From Sedimentisphaerales bacterium (lineage in GTDB: Bacteria; Planctomycetota; Phycisphaerae; Sedimentisphaerales; SM23-30): a stretch of DNA of 64,000 bases. The notes beneath the pieces are model-generated. The model searched no databases, was not told the DNA's origin, and was given only the letters and a program-made list of their open reading frames with translations. Location of the stretch: the NCBI GenBank assembly GCA_963663965.2, contig CAXXFK010000012.1:31043-95042 (forward strand). Reading direction: 5' to 3'. Shown here one piece after another: positions 25,465 through 37,119 of this stretch (the stretch's first letter is position 1; every line of letters starts with the position of its first letter). Both the position numbers and the translations under genes were made by a program.

Positions 25465-26109
25465 TCACGGAAGTGTTCGCCCGCCTTCTCTGACCCGCCG
25501 TCTTTGCCTGACTATCCCTGCCAGGCCCAGCGTCAATAGCCCCGCCGGTTCCGGCACATAAGCCATTGCGGCAATACCGTGAGGATAAATGGCATCTCCC
25601 GTAAATCCTTCCCCGATGACACCCCCACGCAATTTATCTCCCGTGATCGTTACTTTAACTTCTGTAGATTCATGATCCGGGCTCACCCGGAATCCAATCA
25701 AGCGCCGGTCCAGTCCTGGCGCCGGCTCTCCAGGGATAGCATCCCCATCTTCATCCAGATACCCCATGCACACCCCAAAATAACGGCTGGGCAATACCGC
25801 AACGCCTGGACCATCCGGCGAACTCAATGGATGAGCGCCCTCACCCGGTAACTCCGTGGGAGTCCCAAAATCAATGTAATAGTCGATATACGCGTTAAAT
25901 TCACTGTTCAGATAGGTCAGATCACTCACGCTTTCCAATACACCGCCTTGCAACGCCACCGTCAGCGCCACGCCGCGCAAATGTTCTCCGCCGGTAACTT
26001 CATAGAAAATCGTGACTTCATCACCCAACGCCTCTGCTTTGATATAAACACTCCCATACAATGGACTCGTAGAAAACAGAAATGTGATTATTGCCAGGAA
26101 ACGTTGCAT
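25465..26109 (-). CDS. PEP-CTERM sorting domain protein
   Basis: Signal peptide from ATG 26109 (AAGGAG RBS); C-terminal VPEP, hydrophobic helix, RQRRR. Confidence 0.8.
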   Translation of the reverse strand: MQRFLAIITFLFSTSPLYGSVYIKAEALGDEVTIFYEVTGGEHLRGVALTVALQGGVLESVSDLTYLNSEFNAYIDYYIDFGTPTELPGEGAHPLSSPDGPGVAVLPSRYFGVCMGYLDEDGDAIPGEPAPGLDRRLIGFRVSPDHESTEVKVTITGDKLRGGVIGEGFTGDAIYPHGIAAMAYVPEPAGLLTLGLAGIVRQRRRVREGGRTLP

Positions 26110-26526
26110 AAATCGACTCCTTTCTTGACTGACCACTCACCAGTATTCGGCGCTGCCGGGCCCAACTCCAATATGTTATCCAATCCCCTGACATCGAATT
26201 TCAACCACAATCCCCGAACGTTACTATTATCGTACGGTCCATCAATTATCCCTGAATTTTTCCCCATATTCATCCGTGAAATGAATAGGCTTGTAACAAT
26301 TATGCGGATAAATACAAACATCAATATGGCGTCTCTCCAAATCAGAACATTCTTTGATTTCTTGCCTGTTATTCCTGAATCGGCCCGGACTGTAAACCGA
26401 TAAAACTTGATAGATAATTGAGCCTATCCTGTTTCGTGACCGTTGCCAGGCAGGCCCGATAACGTCATAACCAATAATGAGTTTCCAGACGATTGTATTC
26501 GCAATTAACTTACAAACCCGGCACAA

Positions 26527-27966
26527 ATGAATATTGGCGCTGATTCTACTACTGAAATGATTTCAAACGAGCAGGCGGTTGCAAACAAAGCCTGCTTCCA
26601 GGAAGGCTACCTGCCTGTTCCCCTGCCTTATATCGCGCCTGAAAGCCTGCAAGGCCTCAAAATCTATCTCTACAACCCACCGGTCTACAATCTCTATAAA
26701 AGCCTCGATCTCAATTTTAGCCGCAAGGATTATAACCGCCTGATTGACGGTGGTATCGAAACCGTTTATATCCCCACCAGCGATCACCAGGCCTATTATC
26801 AGGCTGTCAGTGGACATCTGGATGACATTCTGGAAGACCGCAAAATCATCAAACAGAAAAAAAGCGATATCCTCTACGCCACCACCCTCTCCCTGGCCAA
26901 TCAACTGCTCACCCAGCCCCCCGGTAAAAAACAGATCGATCAGGTCCGCCGGCTCACCGCTGCCACCGTCCGATATCTCTTTAAAGACCCCCGTTCTTTC
27001 AACCATCTCTTTGAAATCTCCAACCACGACTTCTATACCGCCACCCACATGACCAACGTCAGCACCATCATGGTCGCCTATGCCAACTACCTCGGCATCG
27101 ACGACCCCGATATGCTCAACGACCTGGGAACCGGCGCGCTGCTGCACGACGTCGGCAAGATGTTTATCCCTCAGGATCTGCTCAACTGCAAAGATAAACT
27201 CACCCCCGAGCAGATACTCATGATCCAGAGCCATGTCCAGAAAGGCGTCGATCACCTCTCTTCGGTTACCGATCTGTCCGATAACATTATTCGCATGGTC
27301 GCCGAACACCACGAAAAAAACGACGGCACCGGTTATCCCCGCCATCTGTTGTGTGATGATATTTCACTCATTGGTAAAATGACCTCAATGGTCGATTGTT
27401 ACGAAGCCATGACCTCTGTCCGGCCCTATCGCAACCATGGGCTCTCCACCGATGAAGCGCTCGAGATCATCCAGGGCATGGCGCCCCATTGCTTCGAAAG
27501 CGAACTGGTCGAATCCTTTTCCCGGTTCGTCATGGATTCCATGAACAACCGCCCGGCCCATGATGTCTCCTCCGAGCATAATATTAAAATCCTCAAACGG
27601 CTGGGTCTGCTTAACGACCGCGATAATCCATCCGGCCGCCAGTTTCCCAGGTATTATCTCCGTGTCCGCTCCACACTCAGCATCATGCACAAAAACAATG
27701 GCAAATGGACCACCGGCCCGGAAGAAATCGTTATCGTTCATAACATGTCCCAGGGCGGAATGGGTATCCTGAGCCCCAAAGCCTTATCCAAAAACGCGAT
27801 CGTCCGCATCCGGATCGCCTCCCGGCAACTCGACCGCCACGTGGACTACCTCGCCACCGTCGTCCGCGTCGTCAACCACGCCGATGGCTGGTACACCCTC
27901 GGCACCCGCTTCCTCCAATCCCAGACCTCCGACCACATCCAGACCCTCTACCAGACCCTCAAATAA
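26527..27966 (+). CDS. HD-GYP c-di-GMP phosphodiesterase with C-terminal PilZ domain
   Basis: HDVGK, HHE..DGTGYP, RPYR; PilZ RQFPR and NMSQGG. Confidence 0.88.
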   Translation: MNIGADSTTEMISNEQAVANKACFQEGYLPVPLPYIAPESLQGLKIYLYNPPVYNLYKSLDLNFSRKDYNRLIDGGIETVYIPTSDHQAYYQAVSGHLDDILEDRKIIKQKKSDILYATTLSLANQLLTQPPGKKQIDQVRRLTAATVRYLFKDPRSFNHLFEISNHDFYTATHMTNVSTIMVAYANYLGIDDPDMLNDLGTGALLHDVGKMFIPQDLLNCKDKLTPEQILMIQSHVQKGVDHLSSVTDLSDNIIRMVAEHHEKNDGTGYPRHLLCDDISLIGKMTSMVDCYEAMTSVRPYRNHGLSTDEALEIIQGMAPHCFESELVESFSRFVMDSMNNRPAHDVSSEHNIKILKRLGLLNDRDNPSGRQFPRYYLRVRSTLSIMHKNNGKWTTGPEEIVIVHNMSQGGMGILSPKALSKNAIVRIRIASRQLDRHVDYLATVVRVVNHADGWYTLGTRFLQSQTSDHIQTLYQTLK

Positions 27967-27996: not shown

Positions 27997-28287
27997 TCAT
28001 ATCTCACCTGCCAGCCGCCGTTTCCGCTCTGCCGTAAACGACCACCATTCCCGCGTCTCACCCGTATCCATAAAATGGACCGCCGCCATCAGCACATCCA
28101 GCACACACGGATCCGGCCGCTTCCTCATCCGCTTGCCCAGCTTCTCATACAGCCGCACCGCATCCTGCCCCGCCAGCTTCCCCGGCCGGTCAATCCCAAT
28201 CAAACGCAACGCCCCGGCCATCGCCCCCCCCACATTCGGAATATCCTCCAGCTTCGTAACCGCGTCTCGATCAACAGCTTTCATCAC
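27997..28287 (-). CDS. Cdd1-like (pathogenicity locus) helix-hairpin-helix protein
   Basis: LEDIPNVG...GI...L.GQD...LY...DPCVLDV...WW pattern. Confidence 0.75.
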   Translation of the reverse strand: MMKAVDRDAVTKLEDIPNVGGAMAGALRLIGIDRPGKLAGQDAVRLYEKLGKRMRKRPDPCVLDVLMAAVHFMDTGETREWWSFTAERKRRLAGEI

Positions 28288-28351: not shown

Positions 28352-29755
28352 TCAATCCAACACCTTTTCCGCCTTGACAATCGCCACCCCCTCCTGAAAC
28401 GGCTCCACCGCTACAATCCCCTCCACTTCCGTCTCAAAAGGAGTTTCGTTACCCAGGGTATCCACCACATATGACTTCCCTTCCCGCTTCCCCCAGGCCT
28501 TGCCCTCACTGAACGTCCCCAAGTACTGATAAATCGGCCGGATAACATCCTTTCGATCAAAATCACACACCCCATAACACCCATCTTTCCGGTATCGAAT
28601 AAATTTCCCCTCCACAATCCCGCAGCAAAACATCCCATCCTCCCCTTTAAAAATAAGCTTCCCCTTCAGGTCAAATACCAGACTTTCCAGTGGCTCATCT
28701 TTAGCACATAAGATTCCCCATTCTGTCAATAATACCCGGTTATAAACAGGCTCAACAATATAATGCCCCTTTTTATCGATAAAACCGCGTCTGGCCATGG
28801 CTCCAATTCCTGTTGACATTGTCAGTGGACTTGGCAAATCCGGCCGGTCCACCAAGACCTCCGCCACGCCATATCTAAAAATTGGAACAAGTATGACCCG
28901 GTCTTTCAATTTGACAACCTCAAGCGTTTCGCAATTAATAAAGCCGGAATAATGCTCATTGGGATCATCCCCATGATCTTTTGCATAAAAAGCAATCCCA
29001 TTCTCGATAGTATGGATATAGGAATAGAACGGTTTGATCACCATTTTTCCCGTTTTATCCATCAAGCCCCAATCCCAACAGGTTTCGTCAAAAAGACGTT
29101 CTTCCGGGGCATCGGGATGCAAATAGCCCACCGGACACAGCCCCGCGGAAAAATACCCGCTGGAATCCCAATCTCCCCTCAACACCACATTGCCTTTGGT
29201 ATCCAGATATACGAGTTTCTCATCAATTGCTCCTAATGCCAATCCATCCTGAAATGGCTCAAGCCAATCATAAATAAAATCAACGATCTCTTTTCCCGTT
29301 TTATCGATTATGCCCCACTTACCCCCCTCCTTTTTAACCGGAGCAAAACCTTCCGAAAAGGATCGCGCTTCGTCATACAACAAAGGAATAATCAATTTCC
29401 CCTCGGTATCGATATACCCACAATACCCACCTCTACCTACTAACGCCCGGTCTTCGATAAATCCTAACGCAGAGTCATATGGTAGCGAAACCACCACACT
29501 ATCACGGACCATCATACAATTTTTCTTCCCACCCATAACTACATTGACTATGCCACCTTCTAAAAATCGAATAGAATCGTATTCTAATGGCAATACCCAA
29601 TGCCCCCCGCTATCGACGATTCCATAACGATACTTACTGACATAGCGGGGCCGCGGCGGGGTATAGTCGTTTTTTTTGTCCGCATTGTCGCCCCCCGGCA
29701 ACAAGCCAAAACATGACAGCAAGATATATTGAACGATTTTCGTTGTACTGTTCAT
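28352..29755 (-). CDS. WG-repeat (beta-repeat) exported protein
   Basis: Repeated FSEG.A.V...(W/Y)G.ID..G units; ATG 29755 with AAGGAG RBS. Confidence 0.85.
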   Translation of the reverse strand: MNSTTKIVQYILLSCFGLLPGGDNADKKNDYTPPRPRYVSKYRYGIVDSGGHWVLPLEYDSIRFLEGGIVNVVMGGKKNCMMVRDSVVVSLPYDSALGFIEDRALVGRGGYCGYIDTEGKLIIPLLYDEARSFSEGFAPVKKEGGKWGIIDKTGKEIVDFIYDWLEPFQDGLALGAIDEKLVYLDTKGNVVLRGDWDSSGYFSAGLCPVGYLHPDAPEERLFDETCWDWGLMDKTGKMVIKPFYSYIHTIENGIAFYAKDHGDDPNEHYSGFINCETLEVVKLKDRVILVPIFRYGVAEVLVDRPDLPSPLTMSTGIGAMARRGFIDKKGHYIVEPVYNRVLLTEWGILCAKDEPLESLVFDLKGKLIFKGEDGMFCCGIVEGKFIRYRKDGCYGVCDFDRKDVIRPIYQYLGTFSEGKAWGKREGKSYVVDTLGNETPFETEVEGIVAVEPFQEGVAIVKAEKVLD

Positions 29756-29833
29756 GATAAACTCCTTCGGCAACAGTCTCTATCTCACGCGCTAATCGAG
29801 TACTTTCCATTAACTCCGATTGGCATAATCCCG

Positions 29834-31240
29834 TTATTTTGATCCATATTTTTGAAAGCTGTATTGATACAGCGGCAAATACGGATTCGCAGCCTGCCGC
29901 AACATCAACTCCACCGAAACATTCATTTTACTCAGATTCATAACAAAATCCGCCCGCTTCCGCGCTTCGTAGATTTCGACTGGATTAAGAGCCGCTTCGA
30001 GATCTTTGATAGAAATATTTTTTTCCTGTGCCCGGGCCATCAACTTGTCTGTTTTTAATCGATCCCGCTTGTCATCATCCATAATGACATAGTACCATTT
30101 AAGCAATTCTATGGCATCCTTGGGTGGATATTTATACTCTGGTATTTTTCGAAACAATTTGTCAACATCAACCATATTGGGGAGTAGATATTGCCACAAC
30201 ATTTCATATTGCGCTTTTTTATCCCCCAAGTGGGCCCCAAAGTATTTGGCCTCTGTCACTAGTTGTTCATAATATTTCGGTCCTGCCAGATCAATTAGCA
30301 AATCGGGCCGTCTCGCCATCAAAGTATCCACATCATCCATGGAAATCGAGGTATTCGACAACGACACATAGCGTAGATTTTTCATTTTTTCCAACTGATC
30401 CAGTATCGCTGGAGTAATCATGGTATGGTCCAGCGTGAGCACCTCAAGACGATCCAGCAGAATAATATTCTCAAGATGATTATCGGTAATATTACTGTTG
30501 GTCAGTAGCAATCTTATTATACCGCTTCCTGTCATATTATTTACAAAATCAGTTACCAGCGTTGTATGCTGCAAATCCAGCGTTTTCAATGCCCCCATAT
30601 CCTTGACAATATTGAGGCCAGAACCTGTAATTTGCGTATCACTGCAATTGAGATATTCAAGCTGGCGTAACGACCCTATCGCTCTCAAGTCAACATCATT
30701 ACAATCTTGAGGCAATCCCAGATAGCTTAAGCCTTCAAGCAATCCGATATCCTGCCAGGTCAGAGATGACATGGGAATGCTAAACAAATCCAGATACTGC
30801 ATACGCTTGAAAGCTGCCAATGTTTGAATTGCCGGCATAGGAACTTTGTCAACTGGGCATTTCTGAATAAATGACCAGTCATCTCCGGCGCTGATATGTA
30901 TTGAATAAATAAATGACTCGATATGCCGTTGAGCAGATTCTTCTATTGGAGATAGCTGCACAAGAAGTATTTTGTCACAATCTAGAAATATTTCATTAGT
31001 AACCTTCTGGAACTGCTGCAGAACTGCCACTTCTTCATTATCCAAGCCAGATTCAGCCAATTCATTCGGTGCTCCATAAGGTGATATGCGAACAAATTCT
31101 CCGCACTCTGGTGTGACAACACCTCGTATATGATATTTTCTTTCAGGCGCATTCCAGTCCTCAACCCCATTGAAAACAATAGCGGACCAGAGAAATGATG
31201 GAGACTGAATAATTATGATCAATAATAGCATCAACCTCAT
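29834..31240 (-). CDS. Exported leucine-rich-repeat protein with Sel1-like helical C-terminus
   Basis: Signal peptide; LxxLxLxxTxIT repeats; paralogous to 33923-35383. Confidence 0.8.
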   Translation of the reverse strand: MRLMLLLIIIIQSPSFLWSAIVFNGVEDWNAPERKYHIRGVVTPECGEFVRISPYGAPNELAESGLDNEEVAVLQQFQKVTNEIFLDCDKILLVQLSPIEESAQRHIESFIYSIHISAGDDWSFIQKCPVDKVPMPAIQTLAAFKRMQYLDLFSIPMSSLTWQDIGLLEGLSYLGLPQDCNDVDLRAIGSLRQLEYLNCSDTQITGSGLNIVKDMGALKTLDLQHTTLVTDFVNNMTGSGIIRLLLTNSNITDNHLENIILLDRLEVLTLDHTMITPAILDQLEKMKNLRYVSLSNTSISMDDVDTLMARRPDLLIDLAGPKYYEQLVTEAKYFGAHLGDKKAQYEMLWQYLLPNMVDVDKLFRKIPEYKYPPKDAIELLKWYYVIMDDDKRDRLKTDKLMARAQEKNISIKDLEAALNPVEIYEARKRADFVMNLSKMNVSVELMLRQAANPYLPLYQYSFQKYGSK

Positions 31241-31242
31241 AA

Positions 31243-32295
31243 TTATCTCCTTATTACTCTAAATAAGATTTTTTTTCTACTGACACCAATCATATCATTA
31301 TATTTTGACCAATCTTCTTCCCTACCAGTTCGATTATTACGGCCACCAGCATCGGAATAATCAACATTGCTAATAATAGTTGCATCGATTTCTTGATTAC
31401 AATTCCATGATATTTTGACTTTAAAATAACCTTCCGATATTAATTTACCTCCAAAATCAGGAACATTCCACTTTGGATATTTATAATCCGGATGAAGATA
31501 TTCTGGGGTAGACAGAATTTCGGGGTATTCTTGATATGCATAGTCTTTATTAAGATAATCGGCATCACCAAATACGGTATAATCCCCAGTAGAATACAAA
31601 GAAAATCGAGTATTTATTAAAATTGCGCCTTTCGAACAGCAATTGGATTGATTAACAAAATTTTTATCAATGAGAGCTGCATAGTAAGGTGATCGATAAC
31701 TATTTTTCCATTTATTATCATTTTGACGAGTACTAATACGAACACCCGTAGGACCAGCCGCTTTATTCTCTTGAATCGTAATTGGAGGCAGATCATCAAA
31801 CATTTCTTCAAATGTACTTGTAGTTCTCTCGAGCTGGCGAACAAAGGATACATTTTCATATCGAGGTGATATTATGTAACTACTATCTTTACAATCCTTA
31901 ACATACCAATATGCTGTTTTATTCATAACAGAATAAAGGCCTGCATTGTTATCAACATCATCTAATACTGCCTGCTCTTTTTCATCCATTCTAAGGGCAG
32001 TACTCATCCAATATCCACTAATACACTTTTTCCCATCAGAACACTCAGTTAAATTAGCAACCGGTGTTCCAACCGCTTCAATCGTAAAAAATCCTAATGC
32101 ATCCAACCGATTCAATGGCCGCTCTTGGACATAGCCATACAAATCCATCCCGTCACGATACCCCATCTTGTCCCGCTGCATAAACCGGCCCTGCTCGGGA
32201 TTGTACATACCATAACACCAGCCCTGACAGATCAACAGGACCAGAATAAGCCTGATCGCGGTTTTGCTTAATATCTTCATCTTCTGAATATCCAT
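31243..32295 (-). CDS. Signal peptide + RHS-core stub + variable C-terminal domain (putative toxin)
   Basis: YNPEQGRFMQRD..G...LYGYV...P.N..DALG motif directly after a hydrophobic leader. Confidence 0.75.
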   Translation of the reverse strand: MDIQKMKILSKTAIRLILVLLICQGWCYGMYNPEQGRFMQRDKMGYRDGMDLYGYVQERPLNRLDALGFFTIEAVGTPVANLTECSDGKKCISGYWMSTALRMDEKEQAVLDDVDNNAGLYSVMNKTAYWYVKDCKDSSYIISPRYENVSFVRQLERTTSTFEEMFDDLPPITIQENKAAGPTGVRISTRQNDNKWKNSYRSPYYAALIDKNFVNQSNCCSKGAILINTRFSLYSTGDYTVFGDADYLNKDYAYQEYPEILSTPEYLHPDYKYPKWNVPDFGGKLISEGYFKVKISWNCNQEIDATIISNVDYSDAGGRNNRTGREEDWSKYNDMIGVSRKKILFRVIRR

Positions 32296-32410
32296 TCATG
32301 CCTTCCTTAATATATCTGTTTTCAATACTTGACTTTGAACTATTTTAGAGGCCACACCCCACATATATCAACGAGGCCGCTAGGCCGCCTTTTGCCCACG
32401 CAACCTTACT

Positions 32411-32809
32411 TTACCAAGTAAAATCAACATCATTTCTGACTTTTTCCGATAATTCCTTATAACTTAAAATCGAACGCCTACCATCACCCCATGTTACCAT
32501 GTACTTTCGGATAAAATATCTATTTATACTTCCAGGAATTTGGGAACATAATAACACTTGATCATTGGATTGCCATGCATCAGGGTAATACAAAATCTTT
32601 TTACTTGAAATATCTTGAAGCTGGTCAATGCTTTCGGGTACGCTTCCATTATTATCAACAAAAAGCCTGATACCTGATACAAGTAAAGAATGATAAGCAG
32701 ACATTGAATTGTAAATATTAGTTTGCAGTATAGGTACAATAAGTGCTCCAACAATTATTATCACGATCAAACAAAAAATACTTTTTTTAATAACGCTATT
32801 CATATACAC
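32411..32809 (-). CDS. Small membrane-anchored hypothetical protein (candidate immunity)
   Basis: 132 aa, N-terminal TM helix, AT-rich, next gene downstream of the 33004 RHS-stub gene. Confidence 0.55.
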   Translation of the reverse strand: MYMNSVIKKSIFCLIVIIIVGALIVPILQTNIYNSMSAYHSLLVSGIRLFVDNNGSVPESIDQLQDISSKKILYYPDAWQSNDQVLLCSQIPGSINRYFIRKYMVTWGDGRRSILSYKELSEKVRNDVDFTW

Positions 32810-33003
32810 CTTGAACTTTTGTATAATTATCCTACTATATCATTATTCAGAAGTACTTTTGGGAATATTTCGAATCAATAACATGTCCTAATTCCAACAA
32901 AAGTTACGATAAACTGCATCGCCCCAGCACATCAATAATATCGTATTTCTTTTTTTATAGAACTAATAATTTATTCTTACAATAAAATCCGGGTTAAGAA
33001 CAG

Positions 33004-33843
33004 TTAATCGGGAGGCCCACACCAAGGATAACGATCATCATCAACAAGCCATTTACAACCATTTTCTCCTCCTGTAACACCGCATTTAACCAATGGTTCC
33101 TTCGCGATATCCGTAAATACCCATGGATCGAAGTTTACATCTGAAGTAGAGCTTTTATTACATTCATGAAATATTCCAACATATTGATGATAGGTTTCTT
33201 CATCGCCGCCGTAAAATACCGTCGCGACTATTTTAGAGTGTTTTTTGGTACGATGCCCCATCCTTGTTCGCCAACAAAACAATTGATCTGCCAAATGCAT
33301 ATCCCAGATTGCAACAGCATACTGATCACACATAATATAACAACGCTCAAAGGGAAGCCCCGCAATATACTTAGATAAACCATCCTCTAGGGTCCAATTA
33401 TTTACAAAATCATCCAATTTATTAAAATAACTTCTTAATAACTGAGAAGCTTCATTCTTGCACTGCTGAATCGACATGCAACCACCGCATGGACACTTAT
33501 ATTTTTCGCAAATTCGGTGTAATCGAGCTTCATTATCTCTAAAATAAGCACTTGGTCTATCTCGCGTTGCAAGCTTATATTCATATTCAAATAACGCTCC
33601 AAATCCTTCACTATCATTTCCGTTTATAGGGTCACATTTCACATATTGAAAAATATTCTTTCCATCAAGATATTGCCCTAACGGATTAAATCCATTCAAA
33701 TATCCCCCCGATACCATACCCAGCGGATCCCGCTGCATAAACCGACCCTGTTCAGGATTGTACATACCCATACAATAACCGCCATAAAACCAACCCACAG
33801 ATAACATTAACAGGAAACGTAATGTAATTATTTTTTGCATCAT
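33004..33843 (-). CDS. Signal peptide + RHS-core stub + Cys-rich variable C-terminal domain (putative toxin)
   Basis: YNPEQGRFMQRDPLG...DGKNIFQYV...PINGNDSEG after a hydrophobic leader. Confidence 0.75.
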   Translation of the reverse strand: MMQKIITLRFLLMLSVGWFYGGYCMGMYNPEQGRFMQRDPLGMVSGGYLNGFNPLGQYLDGKNIFQYVKCDPINGNDSEGFGALFEYEYKLATRDRPSAYFRDNEARLHRICEKYKCPCGGCMSIQQCKNEASQLLRSYFNKLDDFVNNWTLEDGLSKYIAGLPFERCYIMCDQYAVAIWDMHLADQLFCWRTRMGHRTKKHSKIVATVFYGGDEETYHQYVGIFHECNKSSTSDVNFDPWVFTDIAKEPLVKCGVTGGENGCKWLVDDDRYPWCGPPD

Positions 33844-33922
33844 TTAGCCGCCTTCTTAAAATCCAACAAGAACATTTTGTTGGTAATCTTATTTATAGAT
33901 TCTAGTAATATTTAAATTCCTC

Positions 33923-35383
33923 TCACTTGCTTTCAGCTCCAAATTCCTTAAAACTATACTGATACAATGGTAAATATGGATCCGCTGCCTGCCGCAACAT
34001 CTGCTCAACTGAAAGATTCAATTGACTCAAATCCATTACAAAATCCGCTCGCTTTCGCGCTTCAGATATTTCAACCGGATTCATTGTTTTTTTTATATCA
34101 TTAATTGTATAATCCCTTTCTTCAGCCCTTTTCAATGACCTTGCAAGCGATTCCTGATCGCATCGGTCATTTTCTAAAATACAATAATACCATTTTAGCA
34201 GCTCAATATTATCTTGTGTGGAATGTTCATAGGCTATCAGGCTCGGATCGCTGTAGTCCATCTTATAAAGATTGGCCATATTAAATTCATACCATAATTC
34301 TAATTGAGCCTTAAAATCTCCTAGATGCGCTGCCTGATACGTTGCATTTTTTATCGCCTCTTTCAGATACGGTGGCGAGTTTAGATTTACCTGCAAATCA
34401 GGACGCTGAGCTTGCAGTTCTTTGATATCAGCTTGCGTTATCACAGTTCCCGCCAGTGATACATATTTCAATGACTTCATTCTAGCAAGACAATCTAAAA
34501 TTGTCGATGTCACCTTCGTTTGATCCAGCGATAACACTTCCAGATTTTTCAATGTCTCAATCCCAATTAAATGAGCATTTGTTACATGACATCTATCCAG
34601 CAATAAACGTTTTAGGCCGCTACTCTTAAATTGGATTGCAAAGCCTGGTTTCAGAGAATTTCGCCCTAAATCTAAAGTTTCCAGCGCCGGCATCTTTTGT
34701 ATAACACTCAACCCTTCTCCTGTAACCTCAGTATCATAGAGATTTAAAAAAGTAAGATGAACTAATGGAGCAAGTACAGCAAGATCTTGATCGCTGCAGT
34801 CATAAGGTACCCCCAAATAGTGCAATTCTCCTAGTGTACTAATCTTGTGCCATGACAGTGCTGATATCGACCAACTGAATAACTCTAGATACTTCAATTG
34901 TTTCAATTTAGCCCAGGCGGGTATTTCAGGAATTACTCTTTCAGTAATGGAACTTTTATCAAAATAATAACCTTCTATCCATGGTCTGGTAGGATAAAAA
35001 TCCCCTTGGATTGAGAACGAAAAAGACTCAACATGCCGATGCCGCGATTCATTAGGGGGGGTCAGTTGGATTAATATTACCTTAATACGTTCTCCCATAA
35101 ATACATCAGGAATCTCTTGGCTACTTATATCACGGAATTGTTGTATAACTGAGAGTTCTTCTTGATCAATATCTAAATCATTAAGCTCTTCTATCTCACC
35201 ATACCTCGGAATAAGTATGAATTCGCCTCTCTCCGGCAAAACAATATCTCGTTCTCCCCAATCATTTGGTCGGGAAAAGTTTAATGGATTATGGTGTTCT
35301 ACACGATTGGAAAAAAATGTCCACTCACCAAAAACCGGCATTATAAACACTAACAATACAATCAGAATTTGAACGTTCCTCAT
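33923..35383 (-). CDS. Exported leucine-rich-repeat protein with Sel1-like helical C-terminus
   Basis: ATG 35383 with GAGG RBS; LRRs; C-terminal EARKRADFVM...MLRQAA.PYLPLYQYSF shared with the 29834 paralog. Confidence 0.8.
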   Translation of the reverse strand: MRNVQILIVLLVFIMPVFGEWTFFSNRVEHHNPLNFSRPNDWGERDIVLPERGEFILIPRYGEIEELNDLDIDQEELSVIQQFRDISSQEIPDVFMGERIKVILIQLTPPNESRHRHVESFSFSIQGDFYPTRPWIEGYYFDKSSITERVIPEIPAWAKLKQLKYLELFSWSISALSWHKISTLGELHYLGVPYDCSDQDLAVLAPLVHLTFLNLYDTEVTGEGLSVIQKMPALETLDLGRNSLKPGFAIQFKSSGLKRLLLDRCHVTNAHLIGIETLKNLEVLSLDQTKVTSTILDCLARMKSLKYVSLAGTVITQADIKELQAQRPDLQVNLNSPPYLKEAIKNATYQAAHLGDFKAQLELWYEFNMANLYKMDYSDPSLIAYEHSTQDNIELLKWYYCILENDRCDQESLARSLKRAEERDYTINDIKKTMNPVEISEARKRADFVMDLSQLNLSVEQMLRQAADPYLPLYQYSFKEFGAESK

Positions 35384-35917
35384 AATCGATCTTACCTCTG
35401 ATAACGGAACCCAAAGTACGGTTTTCAAAATCATCACCCCAACAAAACTGATTCAAATACGATCGTATTCAAAACAAGAATAAGCGTCATACCCGATAAA
35501 ACAGTACAACCCCGTCGTACTCTGCTCAACTTCCACCTGGTCCATCCCATATTTTTCATAAAACCGGACATCCTCACAAATTCAACATCTTCGATACCCA
35601 CAGGGTATAGTTCAAATTCCACACCTTTTTAAACGCACACCTCAAACCATTTATAACAGAATAATTCTAATTCAACCCGATTCCCCGAACCGCGACTGAA
35701 CACATCAAACTCCCAAAACCCGCTCTAACCTGCATAATTTCCTTCAAACATCCCTCAAAAACGCCAAATGCGGCGCCAAAACCGGATAAAATTAACATAA
35801 CCAACAACATATCAACAACTTACAACTCCATAAACATCCTGCCACCCCAGCCAAAACCCATCTCAACCCAACCAATCCCCCAAATATTTAAAAATTATCT
35901 GTAATCCCACAATACCC

Positions 35918-35979: not shown

Positions 35980-36915
35980 ATGGAAGAAAAAGTAAAAAAT
36001 GTGCACAGCGGTTGGATCTTCTTATGGATCGCGATTATCGCCTGGCTGCTCATCCCTGCCCTGTTCTATTGGGGCATCACCCACAGATCAGCCCCCCTGA
36101 TCATCCTGGCCATATTGGAAATCCCAACAGCCTTTCTGATCACCTGGGGCCTTTTCGCCCTTCAGCCCAACGAAGCCCGCGTCCTGGTCCTCTTCGGCAA
36201 ATACGTCGGCACCGTACGCAGCGACGGCTTCCACTGGGCCAACCCCTTCACCGTCTATCGCCCGGTCGAAGTCACCGTCAAGGACGACAAAATCGAAAAG
36301 AAAATCACCGGCATGCATTACCGTATCTCATTGCGCGCCCGCAACTTCCAGACCGGCATCCTCAAAGTCAACGACCTGCGCGGCAACCCCATCGAAATCA
36401 GCGCCGTCGTGGTCTGGTGCGTTCAGGATACCGCCAAAGCCCTGTTCGACGTCGATCACTACGAACAATACGTCCAGATCCAGAGCGAAACCGCCGTCCG
36501 GCATCTGGCCGGCAACTACTCCTACGACCACGGCGACGATTCGGATGAAGAAGGCCTCACCCTACGCGGCAACAGCGACACCATCAACGACGCCCTGAAA
36601 CAGGAACTGCAAATTCGGCTCGACAAAGCCGGTGTCCGGGTCGAAGAAGCCCGCCTCACCCACCTGGCCTACGCCCCCGAAATCGCCCAGGCCATGCTCC
36701 GCCGCCAACAGGCCGAAGCCATCATCGCCGCCCGCAAAAAGATCGTGCACGGCGCCGTCAGCATGGTCGAAATGGCCCTGTCGGAACTATCGACCAAAGA
36801 AATCATCCAACTCGACGAAGAGCGCAAAGCGGCCATGGTCGGCAACCTGCTGGTCATCCTCTGCGGCGAAAGCCAGGCCGAGCCGGTCATCAACGCGGGC
36901 ACGCTCTATCACTAG
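35980..36915 (+). CDS. SPFH/band 7 domain membrane protein
   Basis: Two TM helices, [33 protein letters not shown]. Confidence 0.9.
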
Positions 36916-36927
36916 TCAGGAATTATC

Positions 36928-37119
36928 GTGGCCGCCAAAAAAGAATTTCTATTACGCATCGACCCGGATTTATGGCGCGAACTGCAACGCTGGGCCGAAG
37001 ATGAGTTCCGCAGCGTCAACGGACAGATCGAATTCCTACTCCGAGACGCCCTGCGCCAGCGCCGCAAAATCAACCTCCCCCAGGAATCCGCAAACGAAAA
37101 GGAAAGCGCTTCGGAATAA
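36928..37119 (+). CDS. Arc-like ribbon-helix-helix DNA-binding protein
   Basis: FLLRIDP...WA..EFRSVNGQIEFLL. Confidence 0.85.
   Translation: MAAKKEFLLRIDPDLWRELQRWAEDEFRSVNGQIEFLLRDALRQRRKINLPQESANEKESASE

Follow-up and report, generated by a model that had tools for sequence, protein, structure and literature searches.

Exported RHS core ends in an AT-rich island

The DNA analyzed here (the window, 64,000 nucleotides) is C12:31043-95042 of a 7.2-Mb Sedimentisphaerales assembly that is 94.6% complete. At 28352-35437 it contains an island of genes on the minus strand, in the order LRR1, stub 1, a small membrane gene, stub 2, LRR2, and a WG-repeat gene. The two genes of most concern to us encode proteins that we term stubs, in which a signal peptide is followed by the last 40-55 residues of an RHS core and a variable C-terminal tip. 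To judge from sequence, they belong to an apparently undescribed family of separately exported RHS tips that is widespread in planctomycetes and their relatives.

Stub gene 1 (33004-33843, minus strand, 279 aa) begins with a 26-aa Sec/signal peptidase I-type signal peptide ending in C-M-G (33766..33843), assigned from hydropathy and the -3/-1 pattern of the family. An RHS core end follows at residues 27-80 (33604..33765) with Asp39 and Asp77, and then a Cys-rich variable tip of approximately 199 aa (33004..33603). Stub gene 2 (31243-32295, minus strand, 350 aa) has a 29-aa signal peptide ending in C-Y-G (32209..32295), a core end at residues 30-68 (32092..32208) with Asp42 and Asp65, and a tip of 282 aa (31243..32091). 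In both genes, an open reading frame (ORF) preceded by a purine-rich stretch resembling a ribosome-binding site (RBS) opens with a basic N-region and a hydrophobic core, and the C-x-G end of the leader (26 or 29 aa) runs directly into MYNPEQGRFMQRD. The original prediction had described exactly this arrangement, and hydropathy and the -3/-1 rule bear out its reading of the leaders as signal peptides. A lipoprotein reading was rejected because the Cys sits at -3 instead of +1. The near-identical DNA that had been noted around 32171 and 33730 is a 44-nt block spanning the leader/stub junction (32171..32214, minus strand), identical at 38 of 44 nt to 33728-33771.

The assignment of the shared motif to the RHS core end, with its two autoproteolytic Asp residues, also stands. 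In both stubs the TIGR03696 match is confined to positions 37-75 of the 76-position model, scoring 34.5 and 27.5 bits against a cut-off of 32.5, and the alignment to YenC2, in the register of residues 647-690, places D663 and D686 on the two Asp residues. The core end of stub 1 contains a 15-aa insert that is also present in canonical RHS of the same genome, and stub 2 has D-K-x-G where the first DPxG is expected. No RHS-repeat Pfam match was found in either stub protein (279 and 350 aa), and a YD-repeat regular expression found nothing in the window. VgrG (TIGR03361) had no match in the 94.6% complete genome, in a search that did not extend to PAAR. The stubs do not fit RHS effectors delivered by type VI secretion, given that TIGR03361 is without a match in the genome and leaders are present.

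Neither window tip matched anything in Pfam, NCBIfam, ESM Atlas or a search for longer proteins. The stub 2 tip is 30% identical to that of another signal-peptide stub protein (P0030), and the stub 1 tip weakly resembles (H...DPW; hhalign probability 20%) a tip family found both on a stub and on a canonical RHS orphan. Members of that family, at L070:9181-10122 and L031:16264-17100 (35% identity), have conserved Cys, His and DPW residues, which we take to resemble an unnamed papain-fold toxin domain.

A family of signal-peptide stubs

Three further leader-stub genes occur in the same genome, all on contig C15. They lie behind ordinary rhs orphans and an LRR gene related to those of the window, and are interleaved with two transglutaminase-like genes, one of them shortened and located beside insertion-sequence genes. 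The main locus here, L031:3191-18339 (C15:174191-189339), comprises three rhs orphans with partner genes, the LRR gene, the three leader-stub genes, and one intact and one truncated copy of the transglutaminase-like gene, whose product we abbreviate TG. Two of the tips on C15, one of them TGL-like (PF20085), are paralogues of each other, and so are the partner genes behind them (45% and 29% identity).

A profile built from five leader-plus-stub ends retrieved 361 representatives at an E value of 1e-10 or better. Leader-stub proteins, with a median leader of 25 aa, make up 124 of the best 150 of these, and because three more copies exist on C15 as well, the architecture is not a product of chance; this was a check that the original prediction had proposed. 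A DNA pattern (Ala/Gly-x-Tyr-[DNH]-Pro..Gly-Arg-[FW]..Arg-Asp-Pro) matched at least 144 stretches. Among 80 matches listed, most are from Planctomycetota and Verrucomicrobiota, joined by Kiritimatiellia, Poribacteria, a few unassigned records, one Anaerolineae record lacking a stub, and several assemblies labelled Bifidobacteriaceae. The assemblies labelled Bifidobacterium or Bifidobacteriaceae (L109-L113, L129, L130, L143, L152) contain arrays of stubs whose leaders and cores resemble Verrucomicrobiota ones, and the label or binning of these assemblies may be wrong.

A hydrophobic leader is present on 87 of 96 distinct motif ORFs. Arrays alternate between a stub and one other gene, and on one Chthoniobacteraceae contig seven or more stubs with almost the same leader stand in tandem; at several loci, the arrays lie directly 3' of canonical RHS genes. 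The genes that follow stubs encode a hydrophobic N-terminus in 33 of 47 cases, in keeping with an arrangement of polymorphic tips each followed by one gene for an exported or membrane protein, and none of the 47 matched a named immunity family. A Pfam domain could be assigned to 12 of 119 stub tips in one set and to 4 of 50 in another: TGL, Tlde1, SLT, cell-wall hydrolase, peptidoglycan-binding, M35, M76, VWA7_N, DUF6765, AMOP, Tle1-like, PLA2 and DUF922. No nuclease domain was found among the Pfam matches of these 119 and 50 tips. Tips common to stubs and canonical RHS proteins share 45-62% identity inside one Poribacteria genome, and the tip of a stub in genome G072 is 35% identical to that of a C15 orphan. 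Cys makes up 3.4% of residues in stub tips versus 1.4% in RHS tips. One sequence initially taken as a stub (G149) was reclassified as a canonical core and dropped.

The leader takes the place of the core arginine

Alignment to YenC2 (4igl_B 647-690) puts R650 on the last leader residue. R650, D663 and D686 are given as autoproteolysis residues in the accessible text of PMC8455502, which cites Busby 2013. The window stubs keep both catalytic Asp residues, and the core Arg, 13 residues before the first of these, is replaced by the leader's -1 Gly, a feature that the original prediction had missed. In the 124 stubs among the best 150 of the 361 representatives, the Arg position is occupied by Gly (59), Ala (55), Arg (9) or Gln (1); the Arg is kept in 19 of 20 canonical RHS matches. 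Both the profile and the DNA pattern bias this position towards Gly or Ala. A set selected by TG is free of that bias and has Ala in 32, Gly in 5, Ser in 2 and Cys in 1 (n=40). The -3 position is Ala, Val, Ser, Thr or Gly in 81 of 86.

From this register and the -1/-3 pattern, signal peptidase should leave a mature stub that begins exactly one residue past the Arg position. A stub without the Arg should not self-cleave on its own. Residues 15-39 of the stub, with Tyr24, Pro31, the second Asp and Gly, are conserved in a set chosen in part on these residues.

A transglutaminase-like enzyme is encoded beside stubs

The original prediction also overlooked a dedicated enzyme, TG, which is encoded on C15 and not in the island. 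TG is a membrane-anchored protein of 300-450 aa that combines a transglutaminase fold with TPR-like helices; the copy in this genome is C15:178132-179151. Its putative catalytic residues are highly conserved (C128 in 147/148, H154 in 148/148, E169 in 142/148). The model of TG has a predicted local distance difference test (pLDDT) score of 97, versus 42 for a model built from four sequences only. Its nearest folds are menin (Z 14.8, root-mean-square deviation 4.5, 226 residues aligned), TglA (9.0), TGase (8.7) and PNGase (8.0), followed by an amide synthase. The modeled fold and the Cys-His-Asp/Glu triad are those expected of an active transglutaminase-like enzyme. Foldseek returned nothing for the TG model at E 0.001, and we found no solved structure related to it in sequence. 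Relatives of TG fall into at least 2264 clusters, mostly unnamed; the nearest named homologues of this genome's TG are labelled Phycisphaerae, and PF13369 scores under its gathering cut-off in three of four TGs tested.

Of 70 stub loci that were mapped, with overlapping ones counted individually, 38 contain TG; the 25 loci with a canonical core (L041-L065) have none. Across 201 genomes of the order, 12 have a strong TG match, and the next gene is a stub in all 12 (one degenerate, and one locus frameshifted). By comparison, a weak, housekeeping-like paralogue is followed by a stub in 0 of 18 loci. This paralogue (L229-L246; approximately 450-700 aa) is found once in most genomes of the order, in stub-free surroundings; none was seen in this genome or in most of its family. 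A phylum-wide sample found TG in at least 7 of 301 genomes, a floor because only seven candidates were scored per genome, and a stub follows TG in 13 of 13 loci from this sample. A metagenome set yielded 64 distinct TGs, of which nine were too short to judge. A leader-stub lies directly downstream of 49 of the 55 that could be evaluated (46 by rule, three by eye); four are followed by an Arg-bearing core without a leader and two by neither. At L408, L412, L425 and L435, an RHS core gene comes closely after TG, with the Arg kept and the leader absent.

A divergent TG subfamily is represented by five loci. Four of its members are followed by a leader joined to the second core half only, while behind the fifth a spacer separates the leader from that half; these short stubs lack the first Asp in all five loci. 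The loci named for this second subfamily and its short stubs are L324, L328, L330, L331, L333 and L254. Enzyme type and junction type go together.

TG was folded together with the mature stub encoded at C15:180233-181264, alongside three control pairs. The pair scored 0.83 (0.83, 0.85 and 0.83 across runs), versus 0.01 for the best control; in a benchmark, 116 of 157 solved complexes and 2 of 215 mismatched pairs scored as high as the mark. The runs agree on 78% or more of their contacts, with a partner pLDDT of around 50. The predicted interface brings stub residues 1-14 against TG residues that include C128 and E169, which supports binding of the stub start by TG. In full-length RHS proteins, the residues past the core Arg are the same sequence as the stub start, the segment predicted to be bound.

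Similarity of stub cores to RHS cores from the same genome

The original prediction suggested that exported tips might be loaded in trans into an RHS cage. Indirect evidence for the association comes from core sequences: similarity between a stub core and the best RHS core of its own genome averages 0.625, versus 0.454 +- 0.027 when shuffled (14 genomes, p 5e-5), in a test that ignores the tree and leaves out five stubs from three genomes without an RHS core in the set. The values are 0.64 versus 0.46 in 11 genomes after four with a stub close to RHS are dropped. An earlier run gave 0.60 versus 0.42 in 10 genomes; regular-expression extraction of cores missed some sequences, and the 14-genome count is used instead. 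Individual cases include an unusual Leu start common to the stubs and shell of G013, a 2-aa deletion common to stub and RHS in a Poribacteria pair, and a rare core subtype common to stub and RHS across contigs in G130 and G048. The only two core matches in G048 (97% complete, 20 contigs) are a single stub and a single RHS of 2757 aa whose start resembles a signal peptide, both of this subtype.

Canonical cores were found in 18 of 18 TG-stub genomes searched, and a frame of at least 1300 aa in 12 of these. The tip-less shell that the trans-loading idea called for did not appear: the three YD-rich RHS proteins of this genome (2129, 2285 and 6482 aa) each carry their own core and tip. PF25023 was too insensitive to be used in the shell search. 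Two candidate shells can be placed, one at C21:30744-50189 (an RHS of 6481 aa with a signal-peptide-like start) and one at C11:99935-118274 (an RHS of 2276 aa, with a gene for a 3876-aa exported protein upstream).

A model for toxin exchange at the protein level

As the best of several explanations, we propose that the window genes supply RHS toxin tips, exported on their own, to a polymorphic toxin system of PVC bacteria in which stubs re-arm RHS shells after export. Sec export and signal peptidase I would free the stub N-terminus one residue past the RHS core Arg position, and a membrane-anchored, periplasmic TG, whose gene linkage to stubs is seen, would bind the first 14 stub residues at its active site as the complex predicts. 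Acting as a transpeptidase, TG would cut a Sec-exported full-length RHS after the core Arg and then transfer the shell onto a stub's free amine. This ligation would restore Arg-Asp-Asp, and the new tip would be caged and would self-cleave after D-x-x-G, as known RHS chemistry leads one to expect. One shell gene could then be armed with many tips with no need for DNA recombination, and the gene after each stub would protect against that stub's tip. The model would explain why stubs begin exactly where they do, why TG has an active triad, why the second half of the stub is conserved beyond the TG interface, why stub cores follow the shell subtype and why no genes for tip-less shells turn up. We assign a probability of roughly 0.45 to its central claim, that TG cuts the exported RHS shell past the Arg and ligates a new tip, so that toxins are swapped at the protein level. 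A broader version, in which TG ligates a panel of exported tips onto the RHS cage, the self-cleaving site is complete only once the two are joined, and the second TG subfamily does likewise at a second core site, we offer only tentatively.

Several observations weigh against ligation. The complex model names no stub residue at Cys128, the stub fold itself is uncertain, and the stub modeled is from C15 rather than from the window. Ligation, cleavage and toxicity are predictions. The window island contains no TG, the sole intact copy in the genome being on C15; among 22 genomes with a TG-free stub locus, 14 showed no TG elsewhere and eight did (genome completeness is not given, and one locus lacks a clear leader). 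Nine of the 124 stubs retain the Arg, and most tips, 107 of 119 in one set and 46 of 50 in the other, lack a Pfam match. Core similarity can also arise through kinship or DNA exchange with local rhs genes. In core similarity to their own genome the window stubs themselves come only 16th and 18th among 40 genomes, which leaves them without a clear cognate shell, and the island may be a satellite or recent import; G251, G163, G128, G072 and one G013 stub rank poorly as well. In G072 (97% complete, 4 contigs), TG and two stubs are accompanied only by RHS orphans of 341-627 aa, and five fragmented genomes likewise show no long RHS. Finally, no tip-less shell gene was seen among the YD-rich ORFs of this genome or among partial core matches in four others.

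The case of G072, without an intact shell, fits an explanation in which the tip leaves the cell alone and TG either clips the stub to release it or links its N-terminus to an envelope carrier, with the core remnant serving as a mere recognition tag for TG. Neither the linkage of TG to stubs nor their predicted binding requires a shell, and minimal units of TG, stub and partner gene occur among housekeeping genes. The recognizable tips are mostly enzymes that attack walls, membranes or proteins and could act from outside, and the higher Cys content of stub tips relative to RHS tips points the same way. A tag, however, would not explain why stub residues 15-39 are conserved beyond the predicted TG interface, why stub cores follow the RHS subtype of the genome, or why the start is fixed one residue past the Arg, and we regard this explanation, export of the tip without a shell, as unlikely. 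The same linkage, junction and co-variation would fit a non-covalent loading in trans, in which TG, whose fold includes the proteases LapG and PNGase, only clips off the shell's own tip or acts as a chaperone for the stub, which completes the shell's C-terminal plug by strand complementation. Such loading seems quite improbable to us, given the missing tip-less shell. Moreover, PMC8765631 describes a conserved C-terminal region that spirals inward and seals the cocoon, so that refilling a shell already folded and empty would probably be difficult.

There are two further explanations. Stubs might be ordinary orphan rhs tip cassettes held as DNA-level reservoirs for recombination, their leaders incidental, as the resemblance to local RHS cores, the 44-nt block common to both window stubs and the arrays behind rhs genes would allow. 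This is very unlikely: shell homology extends over only about 40 codons, against 100-415 codons in true orphans of this genome, the -3/-1 pattern is conserved on otherwise unrelated leaders, and a dedicated enzyme with an intact triad is encoded next door. That the tips might not be toxins at all, the system instead diversifying surface or signaling proteins, accords with the many tips of no known family and with the lack of nuclease domains among the matches. It strikes us as likewise very unlikely in view of the known antibacterial effector domains among these same matches, the alternation of stub and one other gene, and the pairing of paralogous C15 tips with paralogous partner genes.

Relation to known systems

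Like RHS/YD-repeat polymorphic toxins, especially Sec-exported ones such as WapA and the bacterial teneurin-like proteins (partial text of PMC13018210), stubs have the bipartite DPxG...DPxG Asp pair, a variable C-terminal tip and a downstream partner gene, and some tip families are common to both. They differ in lacking the YD shell, in that the chain begins past the core Arg, in the fusion of a signal peptide straight to the core end, and in having a dedicated upstream enzyme. Orphan rhs-CT/immunity cassettes, as described in the accessible portion of Zhang et al. 2012 (PMC3482391), form the same arrays of a tip and one gene behind full-length rhs; stubs have in addition their own RBS and export signal, and shell homology of only about 40 codons. 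Unlike orphan cassettes, stubs are evidently meant for expression and export, as these signals suggest. With a constant N-terminal module and variable C-terminal domains, the stub works like a polymorphic toxin but belongs neither to the RHS family nor to the orphan cassettes.

TG shares the papain/transglutaminase fold, the Cys-His-acid triad and TPR-like helices with transglutaminase-like/SirB1-type proteins (PF13369), LapG-type periplasmic cysteine proteases and menin, and forms a distinct clade tied to RHS stubs. Sortases and other cysteine transpeptidases form an acyl-enzyme on Cys and then pass the acyl group to a free amine on another exported protein. The chemistry proposed for TG is alike; its fold differs, and an RHS core fragment would serve as its acceptor. 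The usual view is that RHS tip diversity comes from DNA recombination of silent orphan cassettes, and ligation, if it occurs, would be a protein-level counterpart of this process. The own export signal and dedicated enzyme of a phylum-wide tip family point to many toxins arming one cage at once. If ligation is real, TG would be a natural protein ligase of a new kind, acting through a tag of 14 residues and of use as a protein-ligation and encapsulation tool. The proposal also provides a testable function for more than 2000 unnamed transglutaminase-like proteins, and opens the study of interbacterial conflict in Planctomycetota and Verrucomicrobiota, where many tips are of unknown fold.

In the text available to us, PMC3482391 (Zhang 2012) covers standalone cassettes, as well as inactive transglutaminase domains N-terminal to RHS, and PMC13018210, PMC8765631, PMC10684867 and bioRxiv 2024.02.26.582050 cover the core motif, sealing and self-cleavage for full-length proteins. 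Neither signal-peptide RHS stubs nor the TG partner was found described in the literature searched, in which subscription journals were thinly covered and supplements excluded. Even without a shell, the TG-stub pair is, within that literature, an undescribed export and processing module.

Other genes of the island and its surroundings

The stub genes are interleaved with genes for exported leucine-rich-repeat (LRR), WG-repeat and small membrane proteins in an AT-rich island, as originally predicted: GC content is 0.32-0.41 for the five genes from LRR1 to LRR2 and 0.46 for the WG-repeat gene, versus 0.486 for the genome. A scan for promoters and terminators gave signals no higher than in shuffled sequence. 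LRR1 (33923..35383, minus strand) encodes an exported LRR protein of 486 aa, counted from an RBS-preceded ATG, that is possibly an orphan immunity protein. Directly 3' of stub 1 lies a gene for a membrane-anchored protein of 130 aa (32411..32803, minus strand), a candidate immunity protein from its position. LRR2 (29834..31240, minus strand), also encoding an exported LRR protein, starts 2 nt past stub 2 and is likewise a positional candidate; by that token, the LRR genes may confer immunity. LRR1 and LRR2 are 42% identical, and the LRR part of LRR1 is 32% identical to the C15 LRR gene that also precedes a stub. Among 30 relatives, the LRR genes have one homologue, on a 6.5-kb contig without a visible stub, and none was found among metagenome contigs. 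The WG-repeat gene at the island end (28352..29755, minus strand; PF14903, E 2e-55) is lipoprotein-like, with a lipobox-like LLSC, and may be a member of the system.

On one side, the island is flanked by a Cdd1-family gene (27997-28287, minus strand) and a gene encoding an HD-domain/PilZ protein (26527-27966, plus strand), and on the other by a divergent SPFH/band-7 gene (35980-37119, plus strand) with a small downstream ORF. Farther out, the gene at 25465-26136 (minus strand) encodes an exported protein whose tail, VPEP followed by hydrophobic and basic segments, presumably represents a PEP-CTERM-like sorting signal.

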